Assembly: GCA_903842345.1 (NCBI GenBank)
Contig: CAIMLR010000039.1
Coordinates: 140,268 to 204,267, forward strand
DNA: 64,000 nt
Reading direction: 5' to 3'
Source of the DNA: an uncultured Myxococcales bacterium
GTDB taxonomy: Bacteria > Myxococcota_A > UBA9042
Shown piece by piece: positions 11,301-38,364 of the stretch. The notes beneath the pieces were generated by a model. The model did no database searches. It was not told the origin of the DNA and saw nothing but the letters and a program-made list of their open reading frames with translations. Within the stretch, counting starts at the first letter, position 1, and every line of letters begins with the position of its first letter. The position numbers and the translations under genes were made by a program.

Positions 11301-14300
11301 TCTCATCGACCGTGTTGCCACAGACTTCCGTAGCGCCGGGGTTGATGGCGGCGTTGGTGTCGTTGCAGTCGCCGCCGCCCTTTGTGCAAACCGCGGGCGT
11401 GCCGACGGTCGTCATGTTCGCGTCGCAGTACTGGTCCGCATCGTCGTCGCACCCTTCGTCGATGCCGGTGCCGGCGGAGACGCTGGCGATGACGTGCAGG
11501 TCGGTGTTGCCGCTGCCCAACAGCGTGTAGACGCCGGTCAGGCTTCCAGCGAACCAGGCCTGGCCGCTGGCGTACGGGTTGCTCGTGCCGCCGGAAATCG
11601 GCGAATCCTCGATAGTCGGGCTCCCGATGGGCGCCGGGCAGTTGAAGACGACGTAGTACGTCGCACCCGAGACGATGTTGGTACCGGCCGAGGCGGTGAA
11701 CGTAAACTTGGTGAACGCGCCCGAGGTGTTGGAAAGCGAAATCGAAACCTTGGAGCCGAGCAGCGTGCCGCCCGCACCCGGCAAACCGCCGGTGTAGACG
11801 TACATGTCGATGGCCTGGACAACCGTGCTCTTCGCGTAGAGGTCGACAGTGCCAAGGGCGCCGCTGTGCGTCGCGACGAGGGACTGGACGATGAAGCTGG
11901 AGAGCGCGTTGCTGTTGCCAGTGGCTGAAATCGCCACGTCAACCGACGGCGCGGCGCCCGCGCTGCAGTTGTTGTCCTTGCCGTCGCAGAGTTCATTGCC
12001 GCCGGGGTTGGTGTTCGGATCGGTGTCGTCACAGTCGCCGCCGCCGAGGATGCACACGTTGGGCGTGCCCACGACGGTCATCGCGCTATCGCAGAACTTG
12101 TCGCCGTCCTTGTTGCAGCCTTCATCGACCTTGCTGTTGCAGTTGTTGTCGATGTTGTCGCACTTCTCGGGCTTGCCCGGGTTCATGTTGGCGTTGGTGT
12201 CATCGCAGTCGCCCGACTGCGCGGCGGTGTACGGGGCCGTAGACGCGCACGTGCAGGCGCTGAGGCTGATGCCGTAGCCGTCGTTGTCGTTGTCGTAGTA
12301 GCGCACCGTGCAGCCCGTCGCGCCGTTCTCGTCGATGGTGCCGTCGCAGTTGTTGTCCTTGCCGTCACAGACTTCGGTCGCGGACGGATTGATCGACGCG
12401 CTTGTCTCGTCGCAGTCACCCAGCTTGGTCGCCTTGTACGAGCCGGCCACCGTGCACAAGCACTTGCCGGTCGAACCGCTGAGACCATAGGTGTCACTGT
12501 CGCCGTCAAAGTAGTACGTCGTGCAACCGGCCGCGTTCAGGTCGTTCTGGCTGCCGTTGCAGTTGTCGTCCAGGTTGTTGCCGCAAACTTCCGTCGCGCC
12601 CGGGTTCTGGTCGCTGTTGAGGTCGTCGCAGTCGCCGGCGCCCTTCGGGCAGATGGTCGGCAACGGGAAGATGACGGTGTAGGCCGCGTCGCAGTAGCCG
12701 TCCTTGTCGTCATCGCAGCCGTCGTCGGTCTTGCCGTTGCAGTTGTCGTCGATGTTGTCGCAGACTTCCTGGCTCTTGCCCTTGAAGACCGCCGCGTTGG
12801 TGTCATCGCAGTCGCCGCCGCCGTTCGGGCACTTGGTGACCGGACCGCTGAACTTCATGTTGGCGTCGCACTGACCGTCCGAGTCGTCGTCGCAACCTTC
12901 ATCGATCGTGCCGTTGCAGTTGTTGTCGAGGTTGTCGCAGATCTCCGTCGCGGCCGGGTTGACGGCCTTCTTGGAGTCGTCGCAATCCGCGCTGTTCGTC
13001 GCGGTGTACGTGCCGCTCGGCGAGCAGAACTTGGCCGAGAACGTGGAACCGTACGTATCGCCGTCCAGATCCTGGTAGAACGGCAGGCTGCCGAGCGCGT
13101 CCTGATCGTTCTGGCTGCCGTTGCAGTTGTCATCCTTGCCGTTGCCGCAGATTTCCGCCTTGCCCGGATTGACGTTCGCGTTGGTGTCGTCGCAATCGTT
13201 GATGCCGTTCTTGCAGATCGTCGGGTTGCCCACGATCGTCGCGCCGGTGTGGCAGTAGCCGTCGCCGTCGACATCGCAGCCTTCGTCAATCACCTTGTCG
13301 CAGTTGTTGTCGATGCCGTCGCAGATTTCCAATGAGCCCGGATTGATCGCCGGATCGCTCTCATTGCAGTCGCCCGGATTGATCGCCTTGTACTGGTTCA
13401 ACGGGACGCAGAGGCACTTGCTGGAGTTGGTGCCCCACTTGTCGCTGTCCGCGTCAAAGAAGAACGGCTGGCAGTCCTTGGCGTTCTGGTCGTTGTTGGA
13501 GCCGTTGCAGTTGTCGTCATACGCCGTGCCGCAGTCTTCCTGCACGCCGGGGTTGATCGTGGGCGCGGTGTCGTCGCAGTCGTTGCCGCCGTTCGGGCAC
13601 GCCGGCGGCTTGCCGATCGTGTACATGTTGGCGTCGCAGTAATCGTCGCCGTCATCGTCGCAGCCTTCGTCGACCTGGGCGTTGGAGTTGTTGTCCTTGC
13701 CGTCGCAGATTTCCTGACCAGCGGGGTTGATCGCCGGATCGGTGTCGTCGGTGTCGCCGGGGCCCGCCGGGCAGACGAGGATCGGCGCCTGGGTCGAGTC
13801 GTACGCCATGCTGGCGTCGCAGTACTTGTCGCCGTCGTCGTCGCAGCCCTCGTCGGTCTGGCCGTTGCAGTTGTCGTCGAGGTTGTTGCACTTCTCCGGG
13901 CTGCCCGGGTTGACGTTGGCGTCGGCGTCCTGGCAATCGCCGGGCTTGCTGGCGGTCAGGAGGCCGGAAGGCAAGCACTGGCAGGTGAACGGCGAGGTGC
14001 CGTAGCCGTCCGAGTCGATGTCCGTGTAGAAGTTGCTGCAGCCGAGCGCGCCCTGATCGTTGGCGTTGCCGTCGCAGTTGTCGTCGTACGTCGTGGCGCA
14101 CGTTTCAGCGACGCTCGGGTTCACATCGACGTTGGCGTCGTTGCAGTCGCCGGTCTTTGTCGCCTTGTACTGGCCGTTCGCGGTGCACAGGCACTTCGCG
14201 AGGCCCGCGCCAAACGTGTCGGAATCGACGTCGCGGTAGTACTGCACGCAGCCGCTGGCGTTTTCTTCGTCCTGGCCGTTGATGCAGTTGTCGTCTTTGC

Positions 14301-24174: not shown

Positions 24175-24278
24175 AGCGTCTCCGGCAATCGGGTTGCGCA
24201 CAATAGGTGGCCGGGCGATCCACGTCAACGTTGCAACCGCCGACTGCGGGCCCTACGCTTCTGCCCCCGGAGGTTCCT

Positions 24279-25160
24279 GTGCACGTCCTGACTGGTAGTT
24301 CCTGTCCGCATCCGTTTATTTCCGCGGCGTGCCCGCTGTGCCGCGGGAGCGATGCGCCTGGGCGCGTGGAAGCGCTCGCGACGGCGGCGGCAGTGGCGGC
24401 GGCCATTGACGCCGCGGCCGGTCAGCCGGAGATCGTGCTCCGCGATGGCGATCTGCTTTCCCGACCGGAGGCGCTGGATCTGCTGCAGCACGCGCGCCAG
24501 ACCGCCAAGGCCGTCGAACTGTGGACGTCCGGCCTGATGCTGGCGCGTCCCGGCGTGGTGGAAGCGGTGCTGCGCTCGGGCGTGACGATGGTCGCGCTGC
24601 CCCTTTACGGCGATTCCGCGGAGGCGCACGACTGGGTGACAGGCCAGCCCGGGCATTTTCAGCGCGTGATTGCCGGCCTGAAGCGGGTGCGCGCGCTGGG
24701 CGGCAAGACTGCGGTCATCGCGCCGATCCTGCGGCCGACGTTTCGGACACTGCCGTTGCTCGTCCAGAAGTCGCTGGCGCTGGACGTCGCGGCGTTCCGG
24801 TTTGTCGCCCTGCCCGGGCCGGATCGCGTGGGACAGCCGCTGCTGCCGTCGCTGGAGATGGCCGCGCCCTACTTGCGCCAGGCGCTGCAGATGACCGCCG
24901 CAGCCAAGAAACGCAGCAGCGTGCTCGATGTGCCTGCGTGCCTGTTGGGCGACCGCGCCGCGGATGCAGCCAAGGAGGCCGCGGTATCCGTCGTGGCGGA
25001 AGGTGCGGCCAAACACGCGCGCGAGCACGGGCCACAGTGCGACGCGTGCACGTGGCGCGCGGGTTGCCCGGGCCTCCTGACCGCGACGGCAGAGCGCTTT
25101 GGCTGGGCCGGCATCGCGGCGCGGACCGACCCGCCGCCGACCGCGAAAGTCTTGAAATAG
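24279..25160 (+). CDS. Radical-SAM-like protein (paralog of the next two rSAM genes) with a non-canonical Cys motif CX8CX2C. Possibly a divergent or inactive partner.
   Basis: GTG at 24279 preceded by GGAGG (24269-24273) gives MHVLTGSSCPHPFISAACPLC. It aligns with rSAM1 (VRVTRLCNQRCTFC) and rSAM2 (VRHCNQNCGFC), including the shared LPLYGDSAEAHDWVTGQPGHF / SMHGHTAHIHDKLTGTPGAF / SIHSHKHKLEDFLTGTPGSL block and the C-terminal CDACTWRAGCPG motif. The longer ORF starts at GTG 24207. Confidence 0.55.
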   Translation: MHVLTGSSCPHPFISAACPLCRGSDAPGRVEALATAAAVAAAIDAAAGQPEIVLRDGDLLSRPEALDLLQHARQTAKAVELWTSGLMLARPGVVEAVLRSGVTMVALPLYGDSAEAHDWVTGQPGHFQRVIAGLKRVRALGGKTAVIAPILRPTFRTLPLLVQKSLALDVAAFRFVALPGPDRVGQPLLPSLEMAAPYLRQALQMTAAAKKRSSVLDVPACLLGDRAADAAKEAAVSVVAEGAAKHAREHGPQCDACTWRAGCPGLLTATAERFGWAGIAARTDPPPTAKVLK

Positions 25161-25277: not shown

Positions 25278-27230
25278 ATGCCTGAAAACGAGATCCGCGG
25301 CGACGCGACGACCCTTGAAATTGACATCGACAAGCTGGTGCGCGACGGCATCCTGAACCGCGACGAAGCCGAAGCGTTGCGCGCGACGGAGTTGGCCGAA
25401 GGCACGCGCATGGAAGCGCTGCCGTCCGGCGATGGCGAGAACAAGGACGCAGTCAAAGAAGCCGCGATGAAGCACAAGCGCCACTGGGTGCGCGTGACGC
25501 GGCTCTGCAACCAGCGCTGTACGTTCTGCCTGGATTCGATGAACCAGGACGGCACGATGATCGACGTCGAGTCGCTCAAAGCCTACATCGCGCTGGGTCG
25601 GCGCATGGGCCGGGAACGGCTCATCCTGTCTGGCGGCGAGGCCAGCGTGCATCCGCAGTACGTGGAGCTGATCCGCTACGGCAAGTCACTCGGCTACGAC
25701 TGGATCCAGACGATCACCAACGGCATGATGTTCAGCTACAAGCGCTTCGCCAACGCGTGCGCGGAAGCCGGCCTGAACGAAGCCACCGTTTCCATGCACG
25801 GCCACACCGCGCACATCCACGACAAGCTGACGGGCACGCCCGGCGCGTTCGTCACCGGCATCAAGGGCATCCAGAACCTGTGGGAGACCGGCAAGGTCGT
25901 CGTCAACATCGACGTGGTCATCAACAAGCAGAACTACAAGCAGCTGCCTGAGATCCTGGAGTATTACTACAACCTCGGCATTCGCGAGTTTGACCTCCTG
26001 CACATCATTCCGTTTGGCCGCGGCTTTGACGAGCACCGCCACTCGCTGTTTTTTGACCTGAACGACGCCGTGCCGTACTTCCGCCGCGCGTTCAAGCTCG
26101 CGGACCGCGAGGGCGTGTACCTGTGGACCAATCGCCTGCCGGTCATGTACCTGGAAGGTTTTGAGCGGCTCATCCAGGACCCGCACAAGCTGCTGAGCGA
26201 ATTTGACGGCGGCCGCCACAATTTTGAAGGCTTCCTGCGCAAGGGCCTCAAGCCCGACTGCTGGGGCGAGCGCTGCGACTACTGCTTCCTCGACGGTCCG
26301 TGCCGCAGCACGATGTTCCCGTACCGGGAAATGCTGGAATCCCACACGTTCCCGCTGGTGCGCGTGGACAGCCAGCACGTCTGGCAGGGCACGGAAGCGA
26401 AAGCCAAGTTTGAAGCGCAGCAGCCGCAGCGGCTGTGGCTGACGGCGCGCGATGCGGAGGATGCCAAGGCGGCGCTGGCGCGTTCGGCGCATCCGGCCGC
26501 AGACGTGACGCTGCAGTTGGACGCGGGCGCGGATCCCCAGCCGCTGCTGAAGCATCCGCCGCGCGAGATCAAGCGCTTTGTGGTGACGACGACCGACGAC
26601 GCGGCACGCTATTTGGTGGGCGCGCATGCGATTCCGGCGCCGACGGAAGTGGAAGTGATGCTGACGCGCGAGCTGGCCTCGTGGCTGCTGGCGCGACCGG
26701 CGACGCTCAAGGCGTGGGGTACGCGGTTGATCGCGACGCTCAAGACGCACGAGTACCTGTCCGAGTCGCAGGCGGAAGATCCGGATCCGGCGACGCTCCG
26801 CAAGTTGGCCCAGGCCGGCCTGCGCATGCGCAACGTGACGCGCTGCGTGGCGGGCGCGGAGACCGAGCCGGGCGACATCAAGCTGCTGGATGCGACGCTG
26901 CTGGACGGCGCGGGCTTCCTCAACCTGGACAAGTACGTCGGCCATTACGTGGAGCACGCGTACTACAGCAAGTCGATCCGCTGCGGCCGGTGCTCGCAGT
27001 TTGAAACCTGCCAGGGCACGCACATCAACTACCTGCGCAGCCACGGTTTTGCGATCCAGACGCCGCTCGATGAAGCCGGCAAGCCGCTGCCCGACGCCGC
27101 GAGCTTTGACCGCTTGACGGAGCAGTTGGCCGACGCCAATGCCCAGCGCACCAAGCGCGAGCAGCAGCGCACGGTCGGGTTGCACAAGCCCAAGGCGATT
27201 GGCGAACTGGGCATCGGCCGCGAGACCTGA
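25278..27230 (+). CDS. Radical SAM enzyme (650 aa) with a roughly 300-aa C-terminal extension carrying two extra CxxCx5C motifs.
   Basis: Canonical CNQRCTFC cluster-binding motif followed by the SAM-binding LILSGGEASVHP motif. Additional CDYCFLDGPC and CGRCSQFETCQG motifs. An alternative start lies at the Met at 25467 (MKHKRHWVRVTRLCN). Confidence 0.8.
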   Translation: MPENEIRGDATTLEIDIDKLVRDGILNRDEAEALRATELAEGTRMEALPSGDGENKDAVKEAAMKHKRHWVRVTRLCNQRCTFCLDSMNQDGTMIDVESLKAYIALGRRMGRERLILSGGEASVHPQYVELIRYGKSLGYDWIQTITNGMMFSYKRFANACAEAGLNEATVSMHGHTAHIHDKLTGTPGAFVTGIKGIQNLWETGKVVVNIDVVINKQNYKQLPEILEYYYNLGIREFDLLHIIPFGRGFDEHRHSLFFDLNDAVPYFRRAFKLADREGVYLWTNRLPVMYLEGFERLIQDPHKLLSEFDGGRHNFEGFLRKGLKPDCWGERCDYCFLDGPCRSTMFPYREMLESHTFPLVRVDSQHVWQGTEAKAKFEAQQPQRLWLTARDAEDAKAALARSAHPAADVTLQLDAGADPQPLLKHPPREIKRFVVTTTDDAARYLVGAHAIPAPTEVEVMLTRELASWLLARPATLKAWGTRLIATLKTHEYLSESQAEDPDPATLRKLAQAGLRMRNVTRCVAGAETEPGDIKLLDATLLDGAGFLNLDKYVGHYVEHAYYSKSIRCGRCSQFETCQGTHINYLRSHGFAIQTPLDEAGKPLPDAASFDRLTEQLADANAQRTKREQQRTVGLHKPKAIGELGIGRET

Positions 27231-27233
27231 CCG

Positions 27234-27668
27234 TTACGGCCAACTGTCGTCGTTGGGCCAATCGGCAAAATACACGCCCGGTGGCCACCCTTGGGCTGGC
27301 ACGCGCTGCTTCAGGCACTTCGCCACGCCTTCAGGCACCTGCACATCGGTCATCGCGAACACGGTCGTCGCCAGCGCGTCGCCCTTGGCCTCGATCGAAA
27401 TACCCAAGCTCATCGGCCTCTCCGTCGGGTAGCCCAAGCCGTGAAAACAGTCCCGCAACGGCCGCAGGTGCGCGCGCGTGAGCGTTTCGTCCATGAGCTG
27501 GGGCGCCGGTTGCGGCGGGCGTTTGGCGGCGACGACGGGCGCCACCGCGTTGGGCTGCGACCCGGTCGGCTCGTTGCGGCACGACGTCAGGACGCTGGTC
27601 ATGGCCAACAGGCACAGCCACACGAACAGGTGCGGCTTGCGGCGGAAACTCGGGCGCGTGGGGAACAT
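27234..27668 (-). CDS. Small putative lipoprotein (144 aa) encoded on the opposite strand inside the rSAM cluster.
   Basis: ATG at 27666-27668 with GGAG 8 nt upstream on the minus strand. Signal peptide plus lipobox (LFVWLCLLAMTSVLTS|C). It exactly fills the 630-nt gap between rSAM1 and rSAM2. Confidence 0.45.
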   Translation of the reverse strand: MFPTRPSFRRKPHLFVWLCLLAMTSVLTSCRNEPTGSQPNAVAPVVAAKRPPQPAPQLMDETLTRAHLRPLRDCFHGLGYPTERPMSLGISIEAKGDALATTVFAMTDVQVPEGVAKCLKQRVPAQGWPPGVYFADWPNDDSWP

Positions 27669-27860: not shown

Positions 27861-29129
27861 ATGGCCAACATCGGCTACATCCAGATGGTCCGGCACTGCA
27901 ACCAGAATTGCGGCTTTTGCTCCAATCCTGAGACGCCGTTCTTCCACAACCTGGAGCAGATCCACCAGATCGTCGACGACTTTGTCAGCCGCGACTACTT
28001 TGGCGTCATCATGACCGGCGGCGAGCCGACGCTTTCGCCCATCCTGCCAGAAGCCATCGCCCACGCGCGCGCCAACGGCCTGCACGTGCGCATGATCACC
28101 AATGGCCAGAAGCTCGCCGATTGGGACTACTGCAAGTCGCTGGCCGACGCCGGGCTGCAACACGTCCACGTGTCCATCCACAGCCACAAGCACAAGCTGG
28201 AGGATTTCCTGACCGGCACGCCTGGCTCGCTGGATTGGGCGGAGAAGGCGCTGACCAACCTCGGCAAGACCAACATCACCGTCAACATCAACACGGTCAT
28301 TACCCGCTACAATTGCGACCACTTGCACGGCAACATCGAGTGGTTCATCAAGAACTTCCCGTTCATCCAGCACTTCGTGTGGAACAACCTGGACCCGTCG
28401 ATCGGTCGCGCGACCAGCAACCAGTACTTTGCCGCGCGCCTGCAGGACATTGAAGTCAGCCTGTCCAAGGCGATGCGGATGCTGGCGGAGACGGGTCGGT
28501 CGTTCCGCGTGGAGCGCGTGCCGCTGTGCTACATGACGGAATTCGCCCACTGCTCGACCGAGACGCGCAAGATCGTCAAGAGCGAGGAGCGCATCGTCCA
28601 CTTCCTGGACAACAAGGGCACGGTCCGCCAGACCGAGTGGGGCCACCTGTACGCGGACGTGTGCAACGCGTGCAGCCTGCGGTCCATTTGCGGCGGGCTG
28701 TTTGACCGCGGCAACGCCTACGATCCTGCGGAACTGTCGCCGATCTTCCAGGATCCCAAGCCGATCATCTCGCGCATCGTCCAGGATTTGCAGTCGGACC
28801 CGGCATGGCGGATGGCCAAGTTCAAGAACCTGGCGGCGATCCCGGCGGCGCATCAGGGCAAATCGGGGACGCAGCAGAGCGTCGCGGGCGGTGAAGTGTC
28901 GCGCCCGGGCAAGGTGCAGGCGCCGACTGGCGAACGGCTGACGGAAATGGCCATGGACCCCAAGCGCAAGACCGATCACACGGCGCGCGATTGGACGCCC
29001 GAGGCGGCGGGCTGGCATCCGTCGGACGATGAAGACGACGTGGACACCGGGCTCGTCGTGCCCCCTGAGCCGATCGCGAGCGGACGGGTGCCGGTGACGC
29101 GCCTTGAAGTTCGATCCGGACAAGAGTAG
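27861..29129 (+). CDS. Radical SAM enzyme (422 aa), paralog of rSAM1.
   Basis: ATG at 27861 with GGAG 8 nt upstream. MANIGYIQMVRHCNQNCGFC (CxxxCxxC), VIMTGGEPTLSP, shared SIHSHKHKLEDFLTGTPG block, C-terminal CNACSLRSICGG motif. The longer track ORF from 27291 is upstream read-through. Confidence 0.8.
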   Translation: MANIGYIQMVRHCNQNCGFCSNPETPFFHNLEQIHQIVDDFVSRDYFGVIMTGGEPTLSPILPEAIAHARANGLHVRMITNGQKLADWDYCKSLADAGLQHVHVSIHSHKHKLEDFLTGTPGSLDWAEKALTNLGKTNITVNINTVITRYNCDHLHGNIEWFIKNFPFIQHFVWNNLDPSIGRATSNQYFAARLQDIEVSLSKAMRMLAETGRSFRVERVPLCYMTEFAHCSTETRKIVKSEERIVHFLDNKGTVRQTEWGHLYADVCNACSLRSICGGLFDRGNAYDPAELSPIFQDPKPIISRIVQDLQSDPAWRMAKFKNLAAIPAAHQGKSGTQQSVAGGEVSRPGKVQAPTGERLTEMAMDPKRKTDHTARDWTPEAAGWHPSDDEDDVDTGLVVPPEPIASGRVPVTRLEVRSGQE

Positions 29130-29216: not shown

Positions 29217-29663
29217 ATGAGCATGGGCCACCCTCAGATTGAAAAACTCGACCCGAAGACACACACGATGACGCTGTCGCTCGACATCGGCTTGTATCCG
29301 GCTGACGTGCTGTATGCCGCCGCGTACGTCTTCCTCGACCGCGCGTACGTGCTGCTTGACCGCGCCGGTCCGCGCTACGAAGTGCATCTCCGCGGCAAAG
29401 GCGAGCTGACGGAAGCGCAGCTGACGGCGATGTCCGGTGAATTCGAGAACGAGCTGCTCGCTCAGGCGCTGCGTCGCAAGGTCGTCAAGGCCAACCAGAA
29501 GATCATCGAAGACATCACGAGCCAGGCCATTGCGGGCGCGGCCGGCGGCACGCTGCCGACCGACTTCCTCGCGGCGGGCGACGACGGCATGGACTTTCTG
29601 GACGATCCGCTGGGGATCGCCGTGCCGTGGGAAGACAAGTTCAAGAAGAAGAAAGACGCCTGA
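29217..29663 (+). CDS. Small acidic protein (148 aa) with a Lys-rich C-terminal tail (…PWEDKFKKKKDA). Paralog of the next gene. Candidate substrate or accessory protein of the rSAM cluster.
   Basis: ATG with GGAG 5 nt upstream. Its core aligns with the following small protein. No Cys residues. Tail rich in K and aromatic residues. Confidence 0.6.
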   Translation: MSMGHPQIEKLDPKTHTMTLSLDIGLYPADVLYAAAYVFLDRAYVLLDRAGPRYEVHLRGKGELTEAQLTAMSGEFENELLAQALRRKVVKANQKIIEDITSQAIAGAAGGTLPTDFLAAGDDGMDFLDDPLGIAVPWEDKFKKKKDA

Positions 29664-29722
29664 CCCGTCCAACAAATGCCCGCGTTTCCAAACGGTTCGG
29701 ACTTTTCTCAGGAGTTCTTCGC

Positions 29723-29962
29723 ATGAGCCATGTCACACACCAGTCGGTCAAGTTGCACCGCACGCTGTACATGCAGCAGGCGGTGAAGGATGCGGCGACC
29801 ACGTTTGCCGATTTTGCCGCGTTCACCATCAAGCGCGATGGCGACTACTACGCCGTGGACATCAAGGACATTGATCCGGACGTCGACGGCGACGTGGTGG
29901 CCGAGTTCTGCAACTTCGCGCTGGCCAACACGGCCGGTCGCAAGAAAACCAAGAAAGCCTAG
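29723..29962 (+). CDS. Small protein (79 aa), paralog of the previous gene, also ending in a Lys-rich tail (…ANTAGRKKTKKA).
   Basis: ATG at 29723 with AGGAG at 29711-29715. Alignment LYMQQAVKDAATTFADFAAFTIKRDGDYYAVDIKD versus LYPADVLYAAAYVFLDRAYVLLDRAGPRYEVHLRG. The longer track ORF from 29627 overlaps the upstream gene. Confidence 0.55.
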   Translation: MSHVTHQSVKLHRTLYMQQAVKDAATTFADFAAFTIKRDGDYYAVDIKDIDPDVDGDVVAEFCNFALANTAGRKKTKKA

Positions 29963-29992: not shown

Positions 29993-31555
29993 ATGACAGC
30001 GACCACGCTTCAGACCAAAAGCCAGAAGCACGATCTGCTGCCCAAAGGCAAACAGGTTGATCTGACGAAGATTTCCAGCCCCGGCCGCTGGAAGCCTGAG
30101 TTTGCGGTGCCGTTCAACCAGCGGCAGCTCGGCACGAAGATTCTGATTTCCAACGACATGGGCGATTGGGACCTGCTGACGCAGGACGAATTCCGCGACT
30201 TCATCGAGGGCAAGCCGCTGCCGGGCGAGCCGCTGTACGAGAAGCTCAAGGCGCGCAATTTCATCGCCAAGGAAATCAACGTCGCGGAGCAGGCGGAGCG
30301 CTGGAAACGCAAGAAGCAGTACCTGTTCTACGGCCCGACGCTGCACGCGTTTGTGCTGACGCATCGCTGCAACCACGGTTGCCAGTACTGCCACAGCTCG
30401 ATCGTGGGCATGGACCGCAAAGACACGGACATGTCGATCGAGACGGCGGAGCGCGCGGTTGACCTCGTGTTCCAGACGACGAGCCCGGGCATCACCATCG
30501 AGTTCCAGGGCGGCGAGCCGACCGCGAACTGGGAAGTCCTGCAGCACATCGTCGAGTACGCGCGGCAGAAGAACGCGCTGGCCAACAAGGCGCTGTCGTT
30601 CGCCCTGGTGACGAATCTGTCGCTGATGGACGACGAGAAGATGGAGTACCTGCTCGATCGCAAAGTGCAGATCTGCACGAGCCTCGACGGTCCCGCGGAT
30701 TTGCACAACAAGATCCGCATCTTCAAGGACGGCAACAGTCAGGAAACCCTGATGTACTGGATGAAGCGGATCAACGCGCGCTACGGCGAGCTTGGCCTCG
30801 ACACCAACCTGTACCGCGTGGAAGCGCTGCCGACGATCACCAAGCCGAGCCTGCATCGGTGGAAGGAAATCGTCGACACGTACGTGGAAGCCGGCTGCAA
30901 GGCGGTGTTCCTGCGCAAGCTCGACCCGTTCGGATTTGCGGAGCGCACGGCCAAGACGTTGGGCTACTCGATGGACGACTTCCTCGAGTTCTACGCCCAC
31001 GCCGTGGACTACATCATCGAACTGAACCGCAACGGCACGCAGGTGATGGAGCGGCACGCGTCGATCATGCTGAACAAGATCCTCGCGGATCAGGAGCCCA
31101 ACTACCTGGACTTGCGGACGCCCGGTGGCGCGTGCATCGGCCAGCTGGGCTACGCGCCGGACGGCAACGTCTACTCGAGCGATGAAGGCCGCTTCGTCGC
31201 CGCGATGGGCGATGAGATGTTCAAGATCGGCACGGTCGACGACACGTACCACCACCTGATGACCAACGCGCAGACCCGCGCGATGGTGATGGCGGGCTTG
31301 AACGACGCGCAGCCGGATTGCGTGAGCTGCGTGTACAAGCCGTGGTGCGGCCAGCAGGTCGAGTACAACTACAAGACCCAGGGCTCGCTGCACGGCCACA
31401 TGCGGGATTCCGTGTGGTGCAAGAAGCACAAGTCGATCTTCGACTACCTGATGTACAAGCTGGAAAACGCCGACGAGAAGGACATGGAAATGTTCCGCCG
31501 TTGGACGACGAACCGGCAGCTTGAGCACTTCCTGCAGGAACGCGCCCCGCTGTGA
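29993..31555 (+). CDS. Radical SAM/SPASM-domain maturase (anSME-like) with a roughly 110-aa N-terminal extension.
   Basis: GGAG 9 nt upstream of the ATG. HRCNHGCQYC (CxxxCxxC), IEFQGGEPT, and a C-terminal SPASM-like region (GGACIGQLGYAPDGNVYSSDEG … CVSCVYKPWCGQQ … C). The antisense ORF 29708..31873 is rejected. Confidence 0.85.
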   Translation: MTATTLQTKSQKHDLLPKGKQVDLTKISSPGRWKPEFAVPFNQRQLGTKILISNDMGDWDLLTQDEFRDFIEGKPLPGEPLYEKLKARNFIAKEINVAEQAERWKRKKQYLFYGPTLHAFVLTHRCNHGCQYCHSSIVGMDRKDTDMSIETAERAVDLVFQTTSPGITIEFQGGEPTANWEVLQHIVEYARQKNALANKALSFALVTNLSLMDDEKMEYLLDRKVQICTSLDGPADLHNKIRIFKDGNSQETLMYWMKRINARYGELGLDTNLYRVEALPTITKPSLHRWKEIVDTYVEAGCKAVFLRKLDPFGFAERTAKTLGYSMDDFLEFYAHAVDYIIELNRNGTQVMERHASIMLNKILADQEPNYLDLRTPGGACIGQLGYAPDGNVYSSDEGRFVAAMGDEMFKIGTVDDTYHHLMTNAQTRAMVMAGLNDAQPDCVSCVYKPWCGQQVEYNYKTQGSLHGHMRDSVWCKKHKSIFDYLMYKLENADEKDMEMFRRWTTNRQLEHFLQERAPL

Positions 31556-31755: not shown

Positions 31756-32841
31756 GTGCCCTGCTCCACGGAGGACGCCTTGCTGCTCGGCGCAAAACAC
31801 CCAGGCATCCATATCCTCGGCTCCTGGCGCGGGCTCTCCGTCCACGCGCTCGGTTTTGGCCGCGTCTGGGCAAGTCGCGGCGGGCGCCTGTACACGCGCG
31901 CGCTCGCCGGTGGCCCGTGGCAGCTGCAGGATCGCCTGCCTGAACCGGCGTGGCAGCGTTTGCTCGGCCGGTCGGCGTTTGTCGGTCAGGCGCTCCGGAT
32001 CGGCATTCACGGCGTGCTGCCGCTGACCGATCGGGCGCAGCTTGTGGTCGCGACCGGGCGGCTGTGGCGCGTTGAGGATGGCCGTTGGCACGAGGCGTTG
32101 CCGTTTGACTTCCGCAAGCCCGCGCGACTGGGCGTCCTTCGCAGCGCGGAAGGCCAAGTCTATTGCGCCGAGTACACGCTCAATCCGCGCCGCGACCGCG
32201 CCATCCGCCTCTGGCGCTCTGACGATGGCGCCCGCAGCTTCCAGCAAGTCTTCGCGTTTGCCGCGGGTCAGGTCCGCCACATCCACTTCATCCAGCAGGA
32301 TCCGGTGGACGGCTCGCTGTGGCTCGGCACGGGCGATCGCGACGCCGAAAGCGCGATCTGGCGCTCCACGGATCGCGCCGCGAGCTGGCAAGTCATCGGC
32401 GGCGGCAACCAGTCCTGGCGGGCCATCGGCGTGGCGTTCCTGCCCGACGCGGTCATCTGGGGCACCGACGCCGGCAGCGACGCCGGGCGATTCCAGAACG
32501 TCGCGTTGCGCTGGGACCGCCAGACGCGCGCGTTGACGACCCTCGGGCGCCTGCAGGGCCCCGTGCACGGCATCACCGCGCTGGCGGACGGCGGCGTGCT
32601 CTTGTCGACCGGCTGCGAAGGCGGCGTCAACGAGACCGACCGCCGCGTGCACCTCTGGGCCATCCACAGCGGTAAAGGTCCGCAGGAAATCGCCAGCTTT
32701 GCCGCAGGTCTGCAACCCAAACGCGCGCAGTACCCCGTGCTGCACTGCGCCCAAGGGCAAGAGCAAAGCGACCACGTCTGGCTCGTCGGCCGCGGTCTGT
32801 TGGCCAGTCCGCTTGTGGCGCTGGAAATCGCGGTCCGCTGA
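31756..32841 (+). CDS. BNR/Asp-box repeat protein (sialidase-like beta-propeller), hypothetical.
   Basis: Asp-box motifs SxDxGxxW/F: RSDDGARSF, RSTDRAASW. The antisense 443-aa ORF is rejected. Confidence 0.55.
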   Translation: MPCSTEDALLLGAKHPGIHILGSWRGLSVHALGFGRVWASRGGRLYTRALAGGPWQLQDRLPEPAWQRLLGRSAFVGQALRIGIHGVLPLTDRAQLVVATGRLWRVEDGRWHEALPFDFRKPARLGVLRSAEGQVYCAEYTLNPRRDRAIRLWRSDDGARSFQQVFAFAAGQVRHIHFIQQDPVDGSLWLGTGDRDAESAIWRSTDRAASWQVIGGGNQSWRAIGVAFLPDAVIWGTDAGSDAGRFQNVALRWDRQTRALTTLGRLQGPVHGITALADGGVLLSTGCEGGVNETDRRVHLWAIHSGKGPQEIASFAAGLQPKRAQYPVLHCAQGQEQSDHVWLVGRGLLASPLVALEIAVR

Positions 32842-37002: not shown

Positions 37003-37704
37003 TTACCCTTTTTGCCGCGCTTCTGGACCGAGTCCAGCCTTCTTGCGGGCCTCCAACAGCCGCGCCAGGTCGGCGGCGGGCAGCGTCGTCAGGCGGCCAA
37101 TCTGCATCGCGCGCAGCTGGATCGCCGCGAGGTGCTCCAGCAGTTCAGCGCGCAGGTACGCCTGCTCCAGATCGTCGCCCCATGCCAGCACGCCGTGATT
37201 GCCAAGCGTCAGCGCGTCAAACTTCAGCGCGGCCTGGGTCAGCTGGCCAATCTGCTCAGCGCTCTGCGGAAACGCATACGGCAGCAGCGGAATCTCCACG
37301 CCCAGGGAGACCACGGCTTCCGCCAGCATCCGCGGCTCGATCGCCACGCCCGCCACCGCCAGCGCGGTCGCGTTGGGCGCGTGCGTGTGCACAACCGCGC
37401 GCACGTCCGGCCGCGCCGCGTACACCGCCCGGTGCAGCTTCAGTTCAGAAAACGCCTTGCGCCCGCCTTGCAGCACGCGGTCGCGGGCGTCCAGCACAAT
37501 CAGGTCGCTCTCCGTCAGCACGCGCTTGGACAGCGCGGTCGGCGTCGCCAGCAGGTGCTCCCCGGGCAGCCGCAGGGTCACATTGCCGTCGTGATTGGCC
37601 ACCCAGCCGCGCGCATGGAGCTCCTGGGCGATTGCCAGCAGTTGCCGACGGGCCTGCGCCAGCGTCGGTTCACCCAGATGCAGCCGGTGCAGGGTCGTCG
37701 CCAT
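37003..37704 (-). CDS. Class II aldolase/adducin-family protein (FucA/MtnB-like).
   Basis: Motifs ANHDGNVTLRL, HTHAPNATALA, LGNHGVLAWG, the zinc-binding His pattern of class II aldolases. Its start overlaps the stop of the upstream BMC-P gene. Confidence 0.75.
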   Translation of the reverse strand: MATTLHRLHLGEPTLAQARRQLLAIAQELHARGWVANHDGNVTLRLPGEHLLATPTALSKRVLTESDLIVLDARDRVLQGGRKAFSELKLHRAVYAARPDVRAVVHTHAPNATALAVAGVAIEPRMLAEAVVSLGVEIPLLPYAFPQSAEQIGQLTQAALKFDALTLGNHGVLAWGDDLEQAYLRAELLEHLAAIQLRAMQIGRLTTLPAADLARLLEARKKAGLGPEARQKG

Positions 37705-37976
37705 CAGTCGATCGTTGAAACGGCGTCGACGACGCCGACGATCAGGCAGCGGACGGGCGATTTGCTGTCGCCGAGCAGTTGGCGGATGCCGTTGCCTTCG
37801 CGGAGGATGACGACCGTGTCCCCGGGGCCAGCTTGCGCGTGATCGACGGCGAGGAAGCTGTCGCCGGAGTCGCTGCCGTCGGCCTCAATCGGCTGCACGA
37901 CAAAGAGCGGCAGGCCGCGCAAGCTGGGATGCTTGACGGTCGCGACGACGCTGCCGAGGACGCGCGCGAGGATCAC
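37704..37976 (-). CDS. Bacterial microcompartment vertex (pentamer) protein, EutN/CcmL/PduN family (BMC-P).
   Basis: [29 protein letters not shown]…[16 protein letters not shown]…GDSKSPVRC matches the EutN pattern (VIGSVVSTQKHPSL…LLLVQ…AVD…GAG…VL…GS). Confidence 0.85.
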
Positions 37977-38302
37977 TTTGCGCTCCGTGCAGCCGTCTTG
38001 GGCGCGGCGGTCTTGGGCGCAGCCGCTTTGGGGCGCGCAGGCACGTCGATTTGATCAACGATGGCGATGATCGCCGCGTCGACTGGCACAAACGGATCGG
38101 GCATCGCCAGCGCCGCTTCACGCGACGTCGTCAGGTGCACGCAATCGCCGGGGCCCGCTTGGGTCGTGTCGGCCGCGCAAAATGGCTTGCCGCGGTCGGC
38201 GCCATGCTCGTCAATCGGCTGCACCATCAGGAGGCGAATACCCTCCAGCCCCGGCGTTTTCCGGGTGGCGACGACATTGCCGATGACGCGCGCAAGCAGC
38301 AT
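37973..38302 (-). CDS. Second BMC vertex protein (EutN/CcmL family) with an Ala/Pro/Lys-rich C-terminal tail.
   Basis: From the Met at 38302: [60 protein letters not shown]…. The ORF extends to 38356. Overlaps the downstream BMC-P start by 4 nt. Confidence 0.75.
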
Positions 38303-38364
38303 AGGCACACTGTCGCACGCGCGCGGGCTGTCGACAAGACCTTGCCCCCGCCGCAAAGGACCGC

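Follow-up and report, generated by a model that had tools for sequence, protein, structure and literature searches.

Long-form HxsD and HxsD-like proteins of a Myxococcota locus: a probable multi-enzyme, chromosomal form of His-Xaa-Ser radical-SAM maturation

Introduction

The His-Xaa-Ser (HXS or Hxs) system was characterized in 2026 as an antiphage system of Gammaproteobacteria, in which HxsB, HxsC and HxsD are all required for processing of HxsA (PMC13128918). HxsD, whose canonical motifs are LYW and LLNDYxLRE, acts as a non-catalytic partner that binds HxsC, as shown by genetics and pull-down for E. coli HXS (PMC13128918). Canonical HXS genes are arranged D-B-C-A and are carried by mobile elements of Pseudomonadota, and a published survey, which was anchored on HxsA, placed 99.7% of systems in that phylum. 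In this study, we analyzed two small tandem genes, P1 and P2, that lie among radical S-adenosylmethionine (radical-SAM) enzymes in a 64,000-nucleotide stretch of DNA from an uncultured Myxococcales bacterium (contig CAIMLR010000039.1, positions 140,268 to 204,267, forward strand; hereafter the window). Because the survey was anchored on HxsA, it missed the branch to which the window belongs.

The NCBIfam models describe a "type 4" variant of HXS that comprises HxsA4 (NF038313), HxsC4 (NF038332) and the HxsD-like protein HxsD_rel (NF038315); a full-text literature search returned no paper mentioning any of these three models. In outline, the PqqD and RiPP recognition element (RRE) chaperones of the pyrroloquinoline quinone (PQQ) and mycofactocin pathways are also comparable, each being a small non-catalytic partner of a radical-SAM enzyme in peptide maturation. 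Among peptides that are made by ribosomes and modified after translation (RiPPs), Trp-Lys cross-links are known from streptide, WgkB and darobactin-type motifs. An earlier note, made from the letters of the window, had proposed that P1 and P2 are duplicated RiPP precursors and had named HxsD-like accessory proteins as the alternative. We find that P1 and P2 are themselves ordinary members of known families and that, with a probability of about 0.8, they serve as HxsD and HxsD-like non-catalytic subunits in a multi-enzyme variant of Hxs radical-SAM maturation that is encoded on the chromosome.

Results

The genes and segments on which the argument turns are listed here with the evidence that defines them, including AlphaFold2 models and their predicted local distance difference test (pLDDT) scores.

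29217..29663, + strand: P1, long-form HxsD, 148 amino acids (TIGR03976, 56.8 bits; AlphaFold2 fold)
29541..29660, + strand: C-terminal tail of P1, residues 109-148 (AlphaFold2 mean pLDDT 52-62)
29580..29639, + strand: conserved linear motif DDGMDFLDDPLGIAVPWEDK, P1 residues 122-141 (conservation over 88 sequences)
29723..29962, + strand: P2, HxsD-like protein, 79 amino acids (NF038315, 69.4 bits; AlphaFold2 mean pLDDT 92.4)
29993..31555, + strand: HxsB, SPASM-type radical-SAM maturase, 520 amino acids (TIGR03978, 515 bits)

P1 and P2 are real genes. Both open reading frames (ORFs) lie on the same strand, with the ends and lengths that the earlier note had given, and the core and C-terminal strings quoted there are all present verbatim. 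Shine-Dalgarno-like sequences precede both (GGAG for P1, AGGAG for P2). The longest ORF for P2 begins at GTG 29627, but the starts of homologs and the upstream AGGAG favor ATG 29723. A large protein collection contains 892 relatives of P1 and 292 of P2, with high conservation in both, and one match to P1, on the contig CAINLT010000173.1 of an uncultured Myxococcales metagenome-assembled genome (MAG), is 100% identical. HxsB is encoded 330 nucleotides downstream of P1, and an HxsC-like radical-SAM enzyme 88 nucleotides upstream.

The family assignment of both proteins is supported by curated models. In a profile scan against TIGR03976 (HxsD), a check that the earlier note had suggested together with AlphaFold2 modeling of both proteins, P1 exceeded the curated cutoff of 50 bits over model positions 4-87 of 90, and precomputed matches to PF27806 (HxsD) are found on P1 homologs. 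P2 matched NF038315 (curated cutoff 41 bits) over positions 1-61 of 62 and also touched TIGR03976 (E=7e-4). An older Pfam release, which predates PF27806, contained no match for either protein, and PDB sequence searches with P1 and P2 gave nothing below E=0.1. The AlphaFold2 model of P1 is a beta-beta-alpha-beta-beta-alpha domain with pLDDT >90 over residues 7-108; that of P2 is an equivalent beta-alpha-beta-beta-alpha domain. The canonical HxsD motifs are recognizable in P1 but altered: L26-Y27-P28 is invariant, with Pro where LYW has Trp, and N78, E79, L81, L85 and R86 are invariant in the region EFENELLAQALR that corresponds to LLNDYxLRE. P1 shares with canonical HxsD (TIGR03976 / PF27806) an L-Y motif after strand 2, an EFxNxL...R helix motif and a position directly upstream of HxsB, and by analogy it probably binds an HxsC-type radical-SAM enzyme. 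The accessory-protein alternative of the earlier note is thereby upheld, as both proteins pass curated cutoffs, are predicted to be folded and stand directly upstream of HxsB.

The paralogy of P1 and P2 is remote. BLASTP of one against the other gave no alignment at E<=100, so the two are not significantly similar as a pair; it is the profiles of their families that align in hhalign (73 columns, 27% identity, E=0.0035), reproducing the core alignment proposed earlier (LYPADV.../LYMQQA..., EF.N..LA). The common match to TIGR03976 and the same predicted fold complete the basis for calling them tandem paralogs. Both proteins do end in the basic strings that the earlier note had read as Lys-rich tails, but these tails are not homologous, since RKKTKK of P2 pairs in hhalign with R86-K92 in the middle of helix 2 of P1 and not with the C-terminal KFKKKK; the basic C-terminus of P2 is the end of helix 2. 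The statement that neither protein contains Cys was mistaken. P2 has a near-invariant Cys63 in the helix AEFCNFAL (EFCNFAL); of 77 family members, 90% or more retain it.

These results leave little room for the proposal that P1 and P2 are duplicated RiPP precursors with modified Lys-rich C-termini, which rested on the presence of small genes amid radical-SAM enzymes and on the basic residues at both ends. Precursors of this kind are short and largely unstructured, consist of a leader and a core and are without an accessory-family fold, a description that fits neither protein; only the 40-residue tail of P1 is peptide-like. Both proteins instead match accessory-family models and are predicted to form compact folded domains, the basic end of P2 aligns within a helix and not with the P1 tail, the Lys run of P1 is not conserved beyond the Myxococcales-type clade, and relatives encode a separate repeat-peptide substrate of the HxsA4 type. 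The proposal is largely refuted, and we give it next to no credence.

The feature that distinguishes P1 from canonical HxsD is its tail. Canonical HxsD is about 96 amino acids long (the Aeromonas protein has 96 and ends after helix 2) and lacks the additional 40 residues and the motif within them. The tail is predicted by the model to be disordered, yet it contains the most invariant part of P1, with the consensus DFLDDPLGIAxPWExK. In the 88-sequence alignment D123, F127, D130, P131, P137 and W138 are invariant, and L128, D129, L132, G133, I134, A135, E139 and K141 are conserved at 90% or more. Among 138 distinct P1-type tails, the aromatic position is occupied by Trp in 130, Phe in 5 and Leu in 3, the next residue is Glu in 131, the first Lys is found at +3 in 111 tails and one residue later, at +4, in a further 21, and 5 to 59 residues follow the aromatic position. 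The aromatic-x-x-Lys spacing to which the earlier note had drawn attention is thus conserved as W-E-x-K, represented in the window by the tail peptide DFLDDPLGIAVPWEDK with W138, E139 and K141; its suggested link to triceptides is taken up with HxsB below. Judged from the alignments, the conserved element is this motif; the basic flank formed by the Lys run behind it is conserved only loosely: KFKKKK is typical of the Myxococcales-type clade only, and Binatia-type tails read AKKGA or EPGKQGTE. The earlier note had also considered the case of an accessory family combined with tails that are not conserved in orthologs; the accessory family was matched, but the P1 tail is conserved.

The motif occurs once per locus, and in P1 only, in the window and the 83 loci searched. 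A phmmer search with the 33-residue tail against 1.84 billion representatives gave 33 matches at E<=1e-3. Among them are distant HxsD-domain proteins, 29-42% identical to P1 overall, in which DDP[LE]GIAxPWEEK[YF]G is repeated in tandem two or three times, with variable spacers between the copies. One HxsD homolog that has the motif three times (L086, 279-1001, + strand) has an in-frame stop at the consensus Tyr (WEEK*GN vs WEEKYGN), which could be a sequencing error, a pseudogene or a site of read-through. Two candidates for stand-alone motif peptides were rejected: P0248 proved to be the tail of an HxsD protein interrupted by an in-frame stop, and P0246, on a 1.3-kb contig, is a probable remnant.

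One possible explanation for this conservation is that P1 is a substrate fused to its own scaffold. The HxsD domain would then be a built-in leader or recognition domain, the motif DPLGIAxPWExK would be modified by the radical-SAM enzymes of the cluster, for example through cross-linking of side chains (Trp-Lys or others) or through Asp beta-hydroxylation, and the product would be the modified protein, a released peptide or a cofactor. It is the location of the most invariant part of P1 in a predicted disordered tail, together with the frequencies of Trp, Glu and Lys given above, that speaks for this explanation, and the tandem copies with variable spacers in distant relatives recall repeat-type substrates such as HxsA. 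W-E-x-K spacing and tandem copies also liken the tail to the HxS repeats of HxsA and to Trp-Lys RiPPs. The likeness is limited: the motif of P1 stands on an accessory domain, no cognate maturase scored above cutoff, and a few lineages do without the aromatic residue. An obligatory aromatic cross-link is disfavored, because the position is Leu in three loci whose enzyme sets appear complete (L046, L055 and L063). The apparent stand-alone motif peptides, a split tail and a probable short-contig remnant, are weak evidence for a substrate. Overall we consider the fused-substrate explanation unlikely, although it is the most probable of the rivals, and further evidence on it is given with the enzymes and the substrate genes below.

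Three further enzymes are encoded upstream of P1.

24207..25160, + strand: radical-SAM-like protein, 317 amino acids, first gene of the cluster (weak HxsC/HxsC4-type matches)
25278..27230, + strand: HxsC-like radical-SAM protein, 650 amino acids, CNQRCTFC motif (PF04055, 60 bits)
27861..29129, + strand: radical-SAM protein, 422 amino acids, CNQNCGFC motif (best match TIGR03977, HxsC)

Downstream, HxsB clearly exceeds the TIGR03978 cutoff of 370 bits, although it is only about 35% identical to the canonical plasmid HxsB. It falls in a peptide-modifying clade of SPASM proteins, a placement that suits a fused substrate. Nothing supports the link to triceptides raised by the earlier note, as HxsB scored 61.9 bits against the triceptide maturase model NF041707 (YhhB; cutoff 445) and 45.7 bits against NF041718 (AmcB; cutoff 425). 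No known Trp-Lys or cyclophane maturase family was matched above cutoff, which argues against the fused-substrate explanation. The 422-residue enzyme scored 107 bits against TIGR03977 (cutoff 268), and its alignment with Aeromonas HxsC (17% identity, E=6e-8) runs from end to end, the C-terminal Cys motif included. It is encoded immediately 5' of P1 in most relatives, and its Binatia-type counterpart is 84-89% conserved inside that clade. It is the best candidate for the HxsC equivalent and hence the likely direct partner of P1. The 650-residue enzyme, with 98 bits against HxsC4 and 82 bits against HxsC, is far below both cutoffs; it has a long C-terminal extension, and its identity to counterparts is 64-75% in Myxococcales-type loci but about 35% in those of Binatia and Polyangiaceae type. 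The 317-residue protein, at 27 bits against PF04055, is below the threshold of 29.5, and its Cys spacing is C-x8-C-x2-C (SSCPHPFISAACPLC) and not the canonical C-x3-C-x2-C. It may be a degenerate or atypical radical-SAM protein, and it is kept in the same position among Myxococcales-type relatives. The 630-bp gap between the 650- and 422-residue enzymes contains a 144-amino-acid ORF (27234-27668, - strand) with a lipoprotein-like signal (…LAMTSVLTSC) and no match in a family search; it looks like a lineage-specific insertion, since the gap is nearly nil in more distant relatives.

Against the HxsC4 model (NF038332), the upstream radical-SAM enzymes of the window scored 46-98 bits with a cutoff of 500. 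Given these scores and the absence of HxsA4, the cluster is a divergent form of the type 4 variant. P2 is a clear member of HxsD_rel, and the same type of cluster is seen in a low-GC relative (L089), where six or seven HxsC-like radical-SAM enzymes, several of them HxsC4-like, follow HxsB. The window differs from canonical HXS in several ways: three HxsC-like enzymes are encoded upstream, HxsD has a second paralog, HxsA is absent, and the setting, in Myxococcota, is chromosomal and housekeeping. PADLOC 2.0 (2023) matched three enzymes of the cluster only to generic viperin-type radical-SAM models and was silent on P1 and P2, a weak result, since its library is older than the HXS paper.

Relatives of P1 are encoded by 237 species-level genomes; Myxococcota and Binatia account for most of these, and some belong to Thermodesulfobacteriota and Terriglobales. 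The order of two to five HxsC-like radical-SAM genes followed by P1, P2 and HxsB recurs in all four of these groups. Of 70 fetched loci with enough downstream sequence, 57 have P2 within 400 nucleotides after P1, and 58 have an HxsB-like gene within 1.5 kb. Across relatives, the median identity to the HxsB of the window is 76%. Tail-bearing P1 is also found without P2, in Polyangiaceae-type loci (L067-L083) and in L064, L066, L071, L074 and L076. In Polyangiaceae, P1 is accompanied by HxsC-like radical-SAM enzymes and HxsA4 with no HxsB nearby, and in another group of Myxococcota its only companion is a divergent HxsB-like gene, which at 225 bits is below cutoff. The composition of the module is therefore fluid. 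Five loci (L009, L018, L030, L036 and L070) were deposited as MAGs of "Klebsiella pneumoniae" or "uncultured Enterobacteriaceae"; they contain a Myxococcales-type cluster, some with lspA-lgt, and the labels are almost certainly taxonomic mislabels.

The gene that follows HxsB varies between clades. In about 24 Binatia-type loci it encodes a homolog of the aKG-HExxH (alpha-ketoglutarate-dependent) peptide beta-hydroxylase family (TIGR04267, 87.9 bits with a cutoff of 40), as in L001 at 12366-13670 on the + strand; no such homolog occurs in the window. This hydroxylase homolog counts in favor of a fused substrate. In 17-20 Myxococcales-type loci (for example L002, 12429-14026, + strand) HxsB is followed by two paralogous secreted proteins of 293 and 216 amino acids, with signal peptides and ends reading ...YSW, that resemble small outer-membrane beta-barrels. 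The lineage of the window lacks this pair and has in its place an unrelated ORF of 361 amino acids (31756-32841), which we left out of the system, as it has no family match and close relatives only.

The cluster stands next to lspA-lgt-uppS in divergent orientation, in the window as in many Myxococcales-type relatives. We considered a functional tie to these genes: the target of the cluster would be a lipid, a cofactor or another non-peptide substrate, and P1 and P2 would be structural subunits of the enzyme complex. This would be in keeping with the lack of a substrate peptide gene in this lineage, and the unusual conservation of HxsB together with the PADLOC result has more the look of housekeeping than of defense or antibiotic production. 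The nearest characterized relatives of HxsB, though, all act on peptides or proteins, and genes for HxsA4 peptides and for a peptide hydroxylase are present in sister clades. Moreover, the lspA-lgt synteny is missing from Binatia-type loci, so the adjacency may reflect mere common ancestry. We rejected the tie and consider a non-peptide substrate highly improbable.

We searched for the substrate that a type 4 system would modify. In the six reading frames of the window there are at most two H-x-S per 40 amino acids and no relevant His-rich stretch, and no HxS-repeat ORF occurs within +-10 kb in any Myxococcales-type relative. A linked HxsA is thus not found in the window; HxsA4-type genes are confined to Binatia-type and Polyangiaceae-type relatives and L089. 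In L089 (10316-10636, + strand) the peptide, which reads ...SHGSHGSHG...HGSW, scored 100.5 bits against NF038313 (cutoff 55). At least 11 Binatia-type loci encode, next to the cluster, peptides of about 105 amino acids in which a hydrophilic leader precedes an (HGS)n core that ends in GSW, and in two Polyangiaceae loci the (HGS)n gene lies directly 3' of P1. Further examples next to the cluster are L001 (about 780-1100, - strand), L022 and L046, with two copies each, L068 (10787-11080, + strand) and L078 (10800-11102, + strand); the gene is sometimes duplicated, and the repeat number ranges from about 12 to 22. The Binatia-type leaders share KKPLDFLSPxEARQAVKP, whose "DFL" is reminiscent of DFLDDP in the P1 tail. 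The HxsA4 (HGS)n peptide is likely the substrate in these relatives, and in the clade of the window the substrate gene is either unlinked or lost.

The distribution of HxsA4 also bears on the tail. That no other substrate gene exists in the window or in Myxococcales-type loci speaks for P1 as a fused substrate, but relatives with a dedicated HxsA4 retain the tail too. Since some relatives have both HxsA4 and a tail-bearing P1, the tail is no mere replacement for the substrate. This coexistence, together with Leu at the aromatic position in three apparently complete loci, favors docking, and our best guess is that the tail is most likely a tethered docking peptide for another component of the machinery.

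Elsewhere in the window, two adjoining genes of the EutN/CcmL vertex-protein family (37704-37976 and 37973-38356, - strand; 88 and 91 bits) lie beside a class II aldolase gene (37003-37704, - strand; 157 bits). This arrangement (37003-38356, - strand) suggests a bacterial microcompartment locus in the MAG.

Discussion

Our model predicts that P1 and P2, each a small two-layer alpha/beta domain, would bind HxsC-type radical-SAM enzymes as canonical HxsD does (PMC13128918), the candidates being the 422-residue enzyme and its paralogs. Such a complex would help to position a His-Gly-Ser repeat peptide of the HxsA4 type, which the HxsC-like enzymes and HxsB would then modify. In the lineage of the window the substrate gene would be unlinked to the cluster, and the flexible tail of P1, with its DFLDDPLGIAxPWExK motif, may dock another component of the machinery.

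Several observations weigh against this model. The proposed HxsA4-type substrate is missing from the window and from the Myxococcales-type loci within +-10 kb, and the three upstream enzymes are far below the cutoffs for HxsC and HxsC4. With respect to docking, the conservation, disorder, tandem repeats and W-E-x-K spacing of the tail would fit a substrate equally well. If the tail were a substrate, P1 would combine an accessory protein and its core peptide in one chain, and four to seven radical-SAM enzymes would build a conserved cross-linked or oxidized product, possibly a peptide-derived cofactor, in lineages without a linked HxsA, like that of the window.

Altogether, P1 and P2 are proteins of a familiar kind, and what is new is the variant of a known system in which they stand. 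The chromosomal location, the strong conservation of HxsB, the presence of four to seven radical-SAM enzymes and two HxsD paralogs, and a substrate linkage that depends on the clade suggest a function other than mobile phage defense. The interest of the locus lies in its conserved tail motif, in a multi-enzyme radical-SAM arrangement without a linked HxsA, and in a chromosomal context unlike that of a mobile defense island. The tail motif could show how HxsD-type proteins organize multi-enzyme radical-SAM chemistry, or it could expose a new self-scaffolded substrate.

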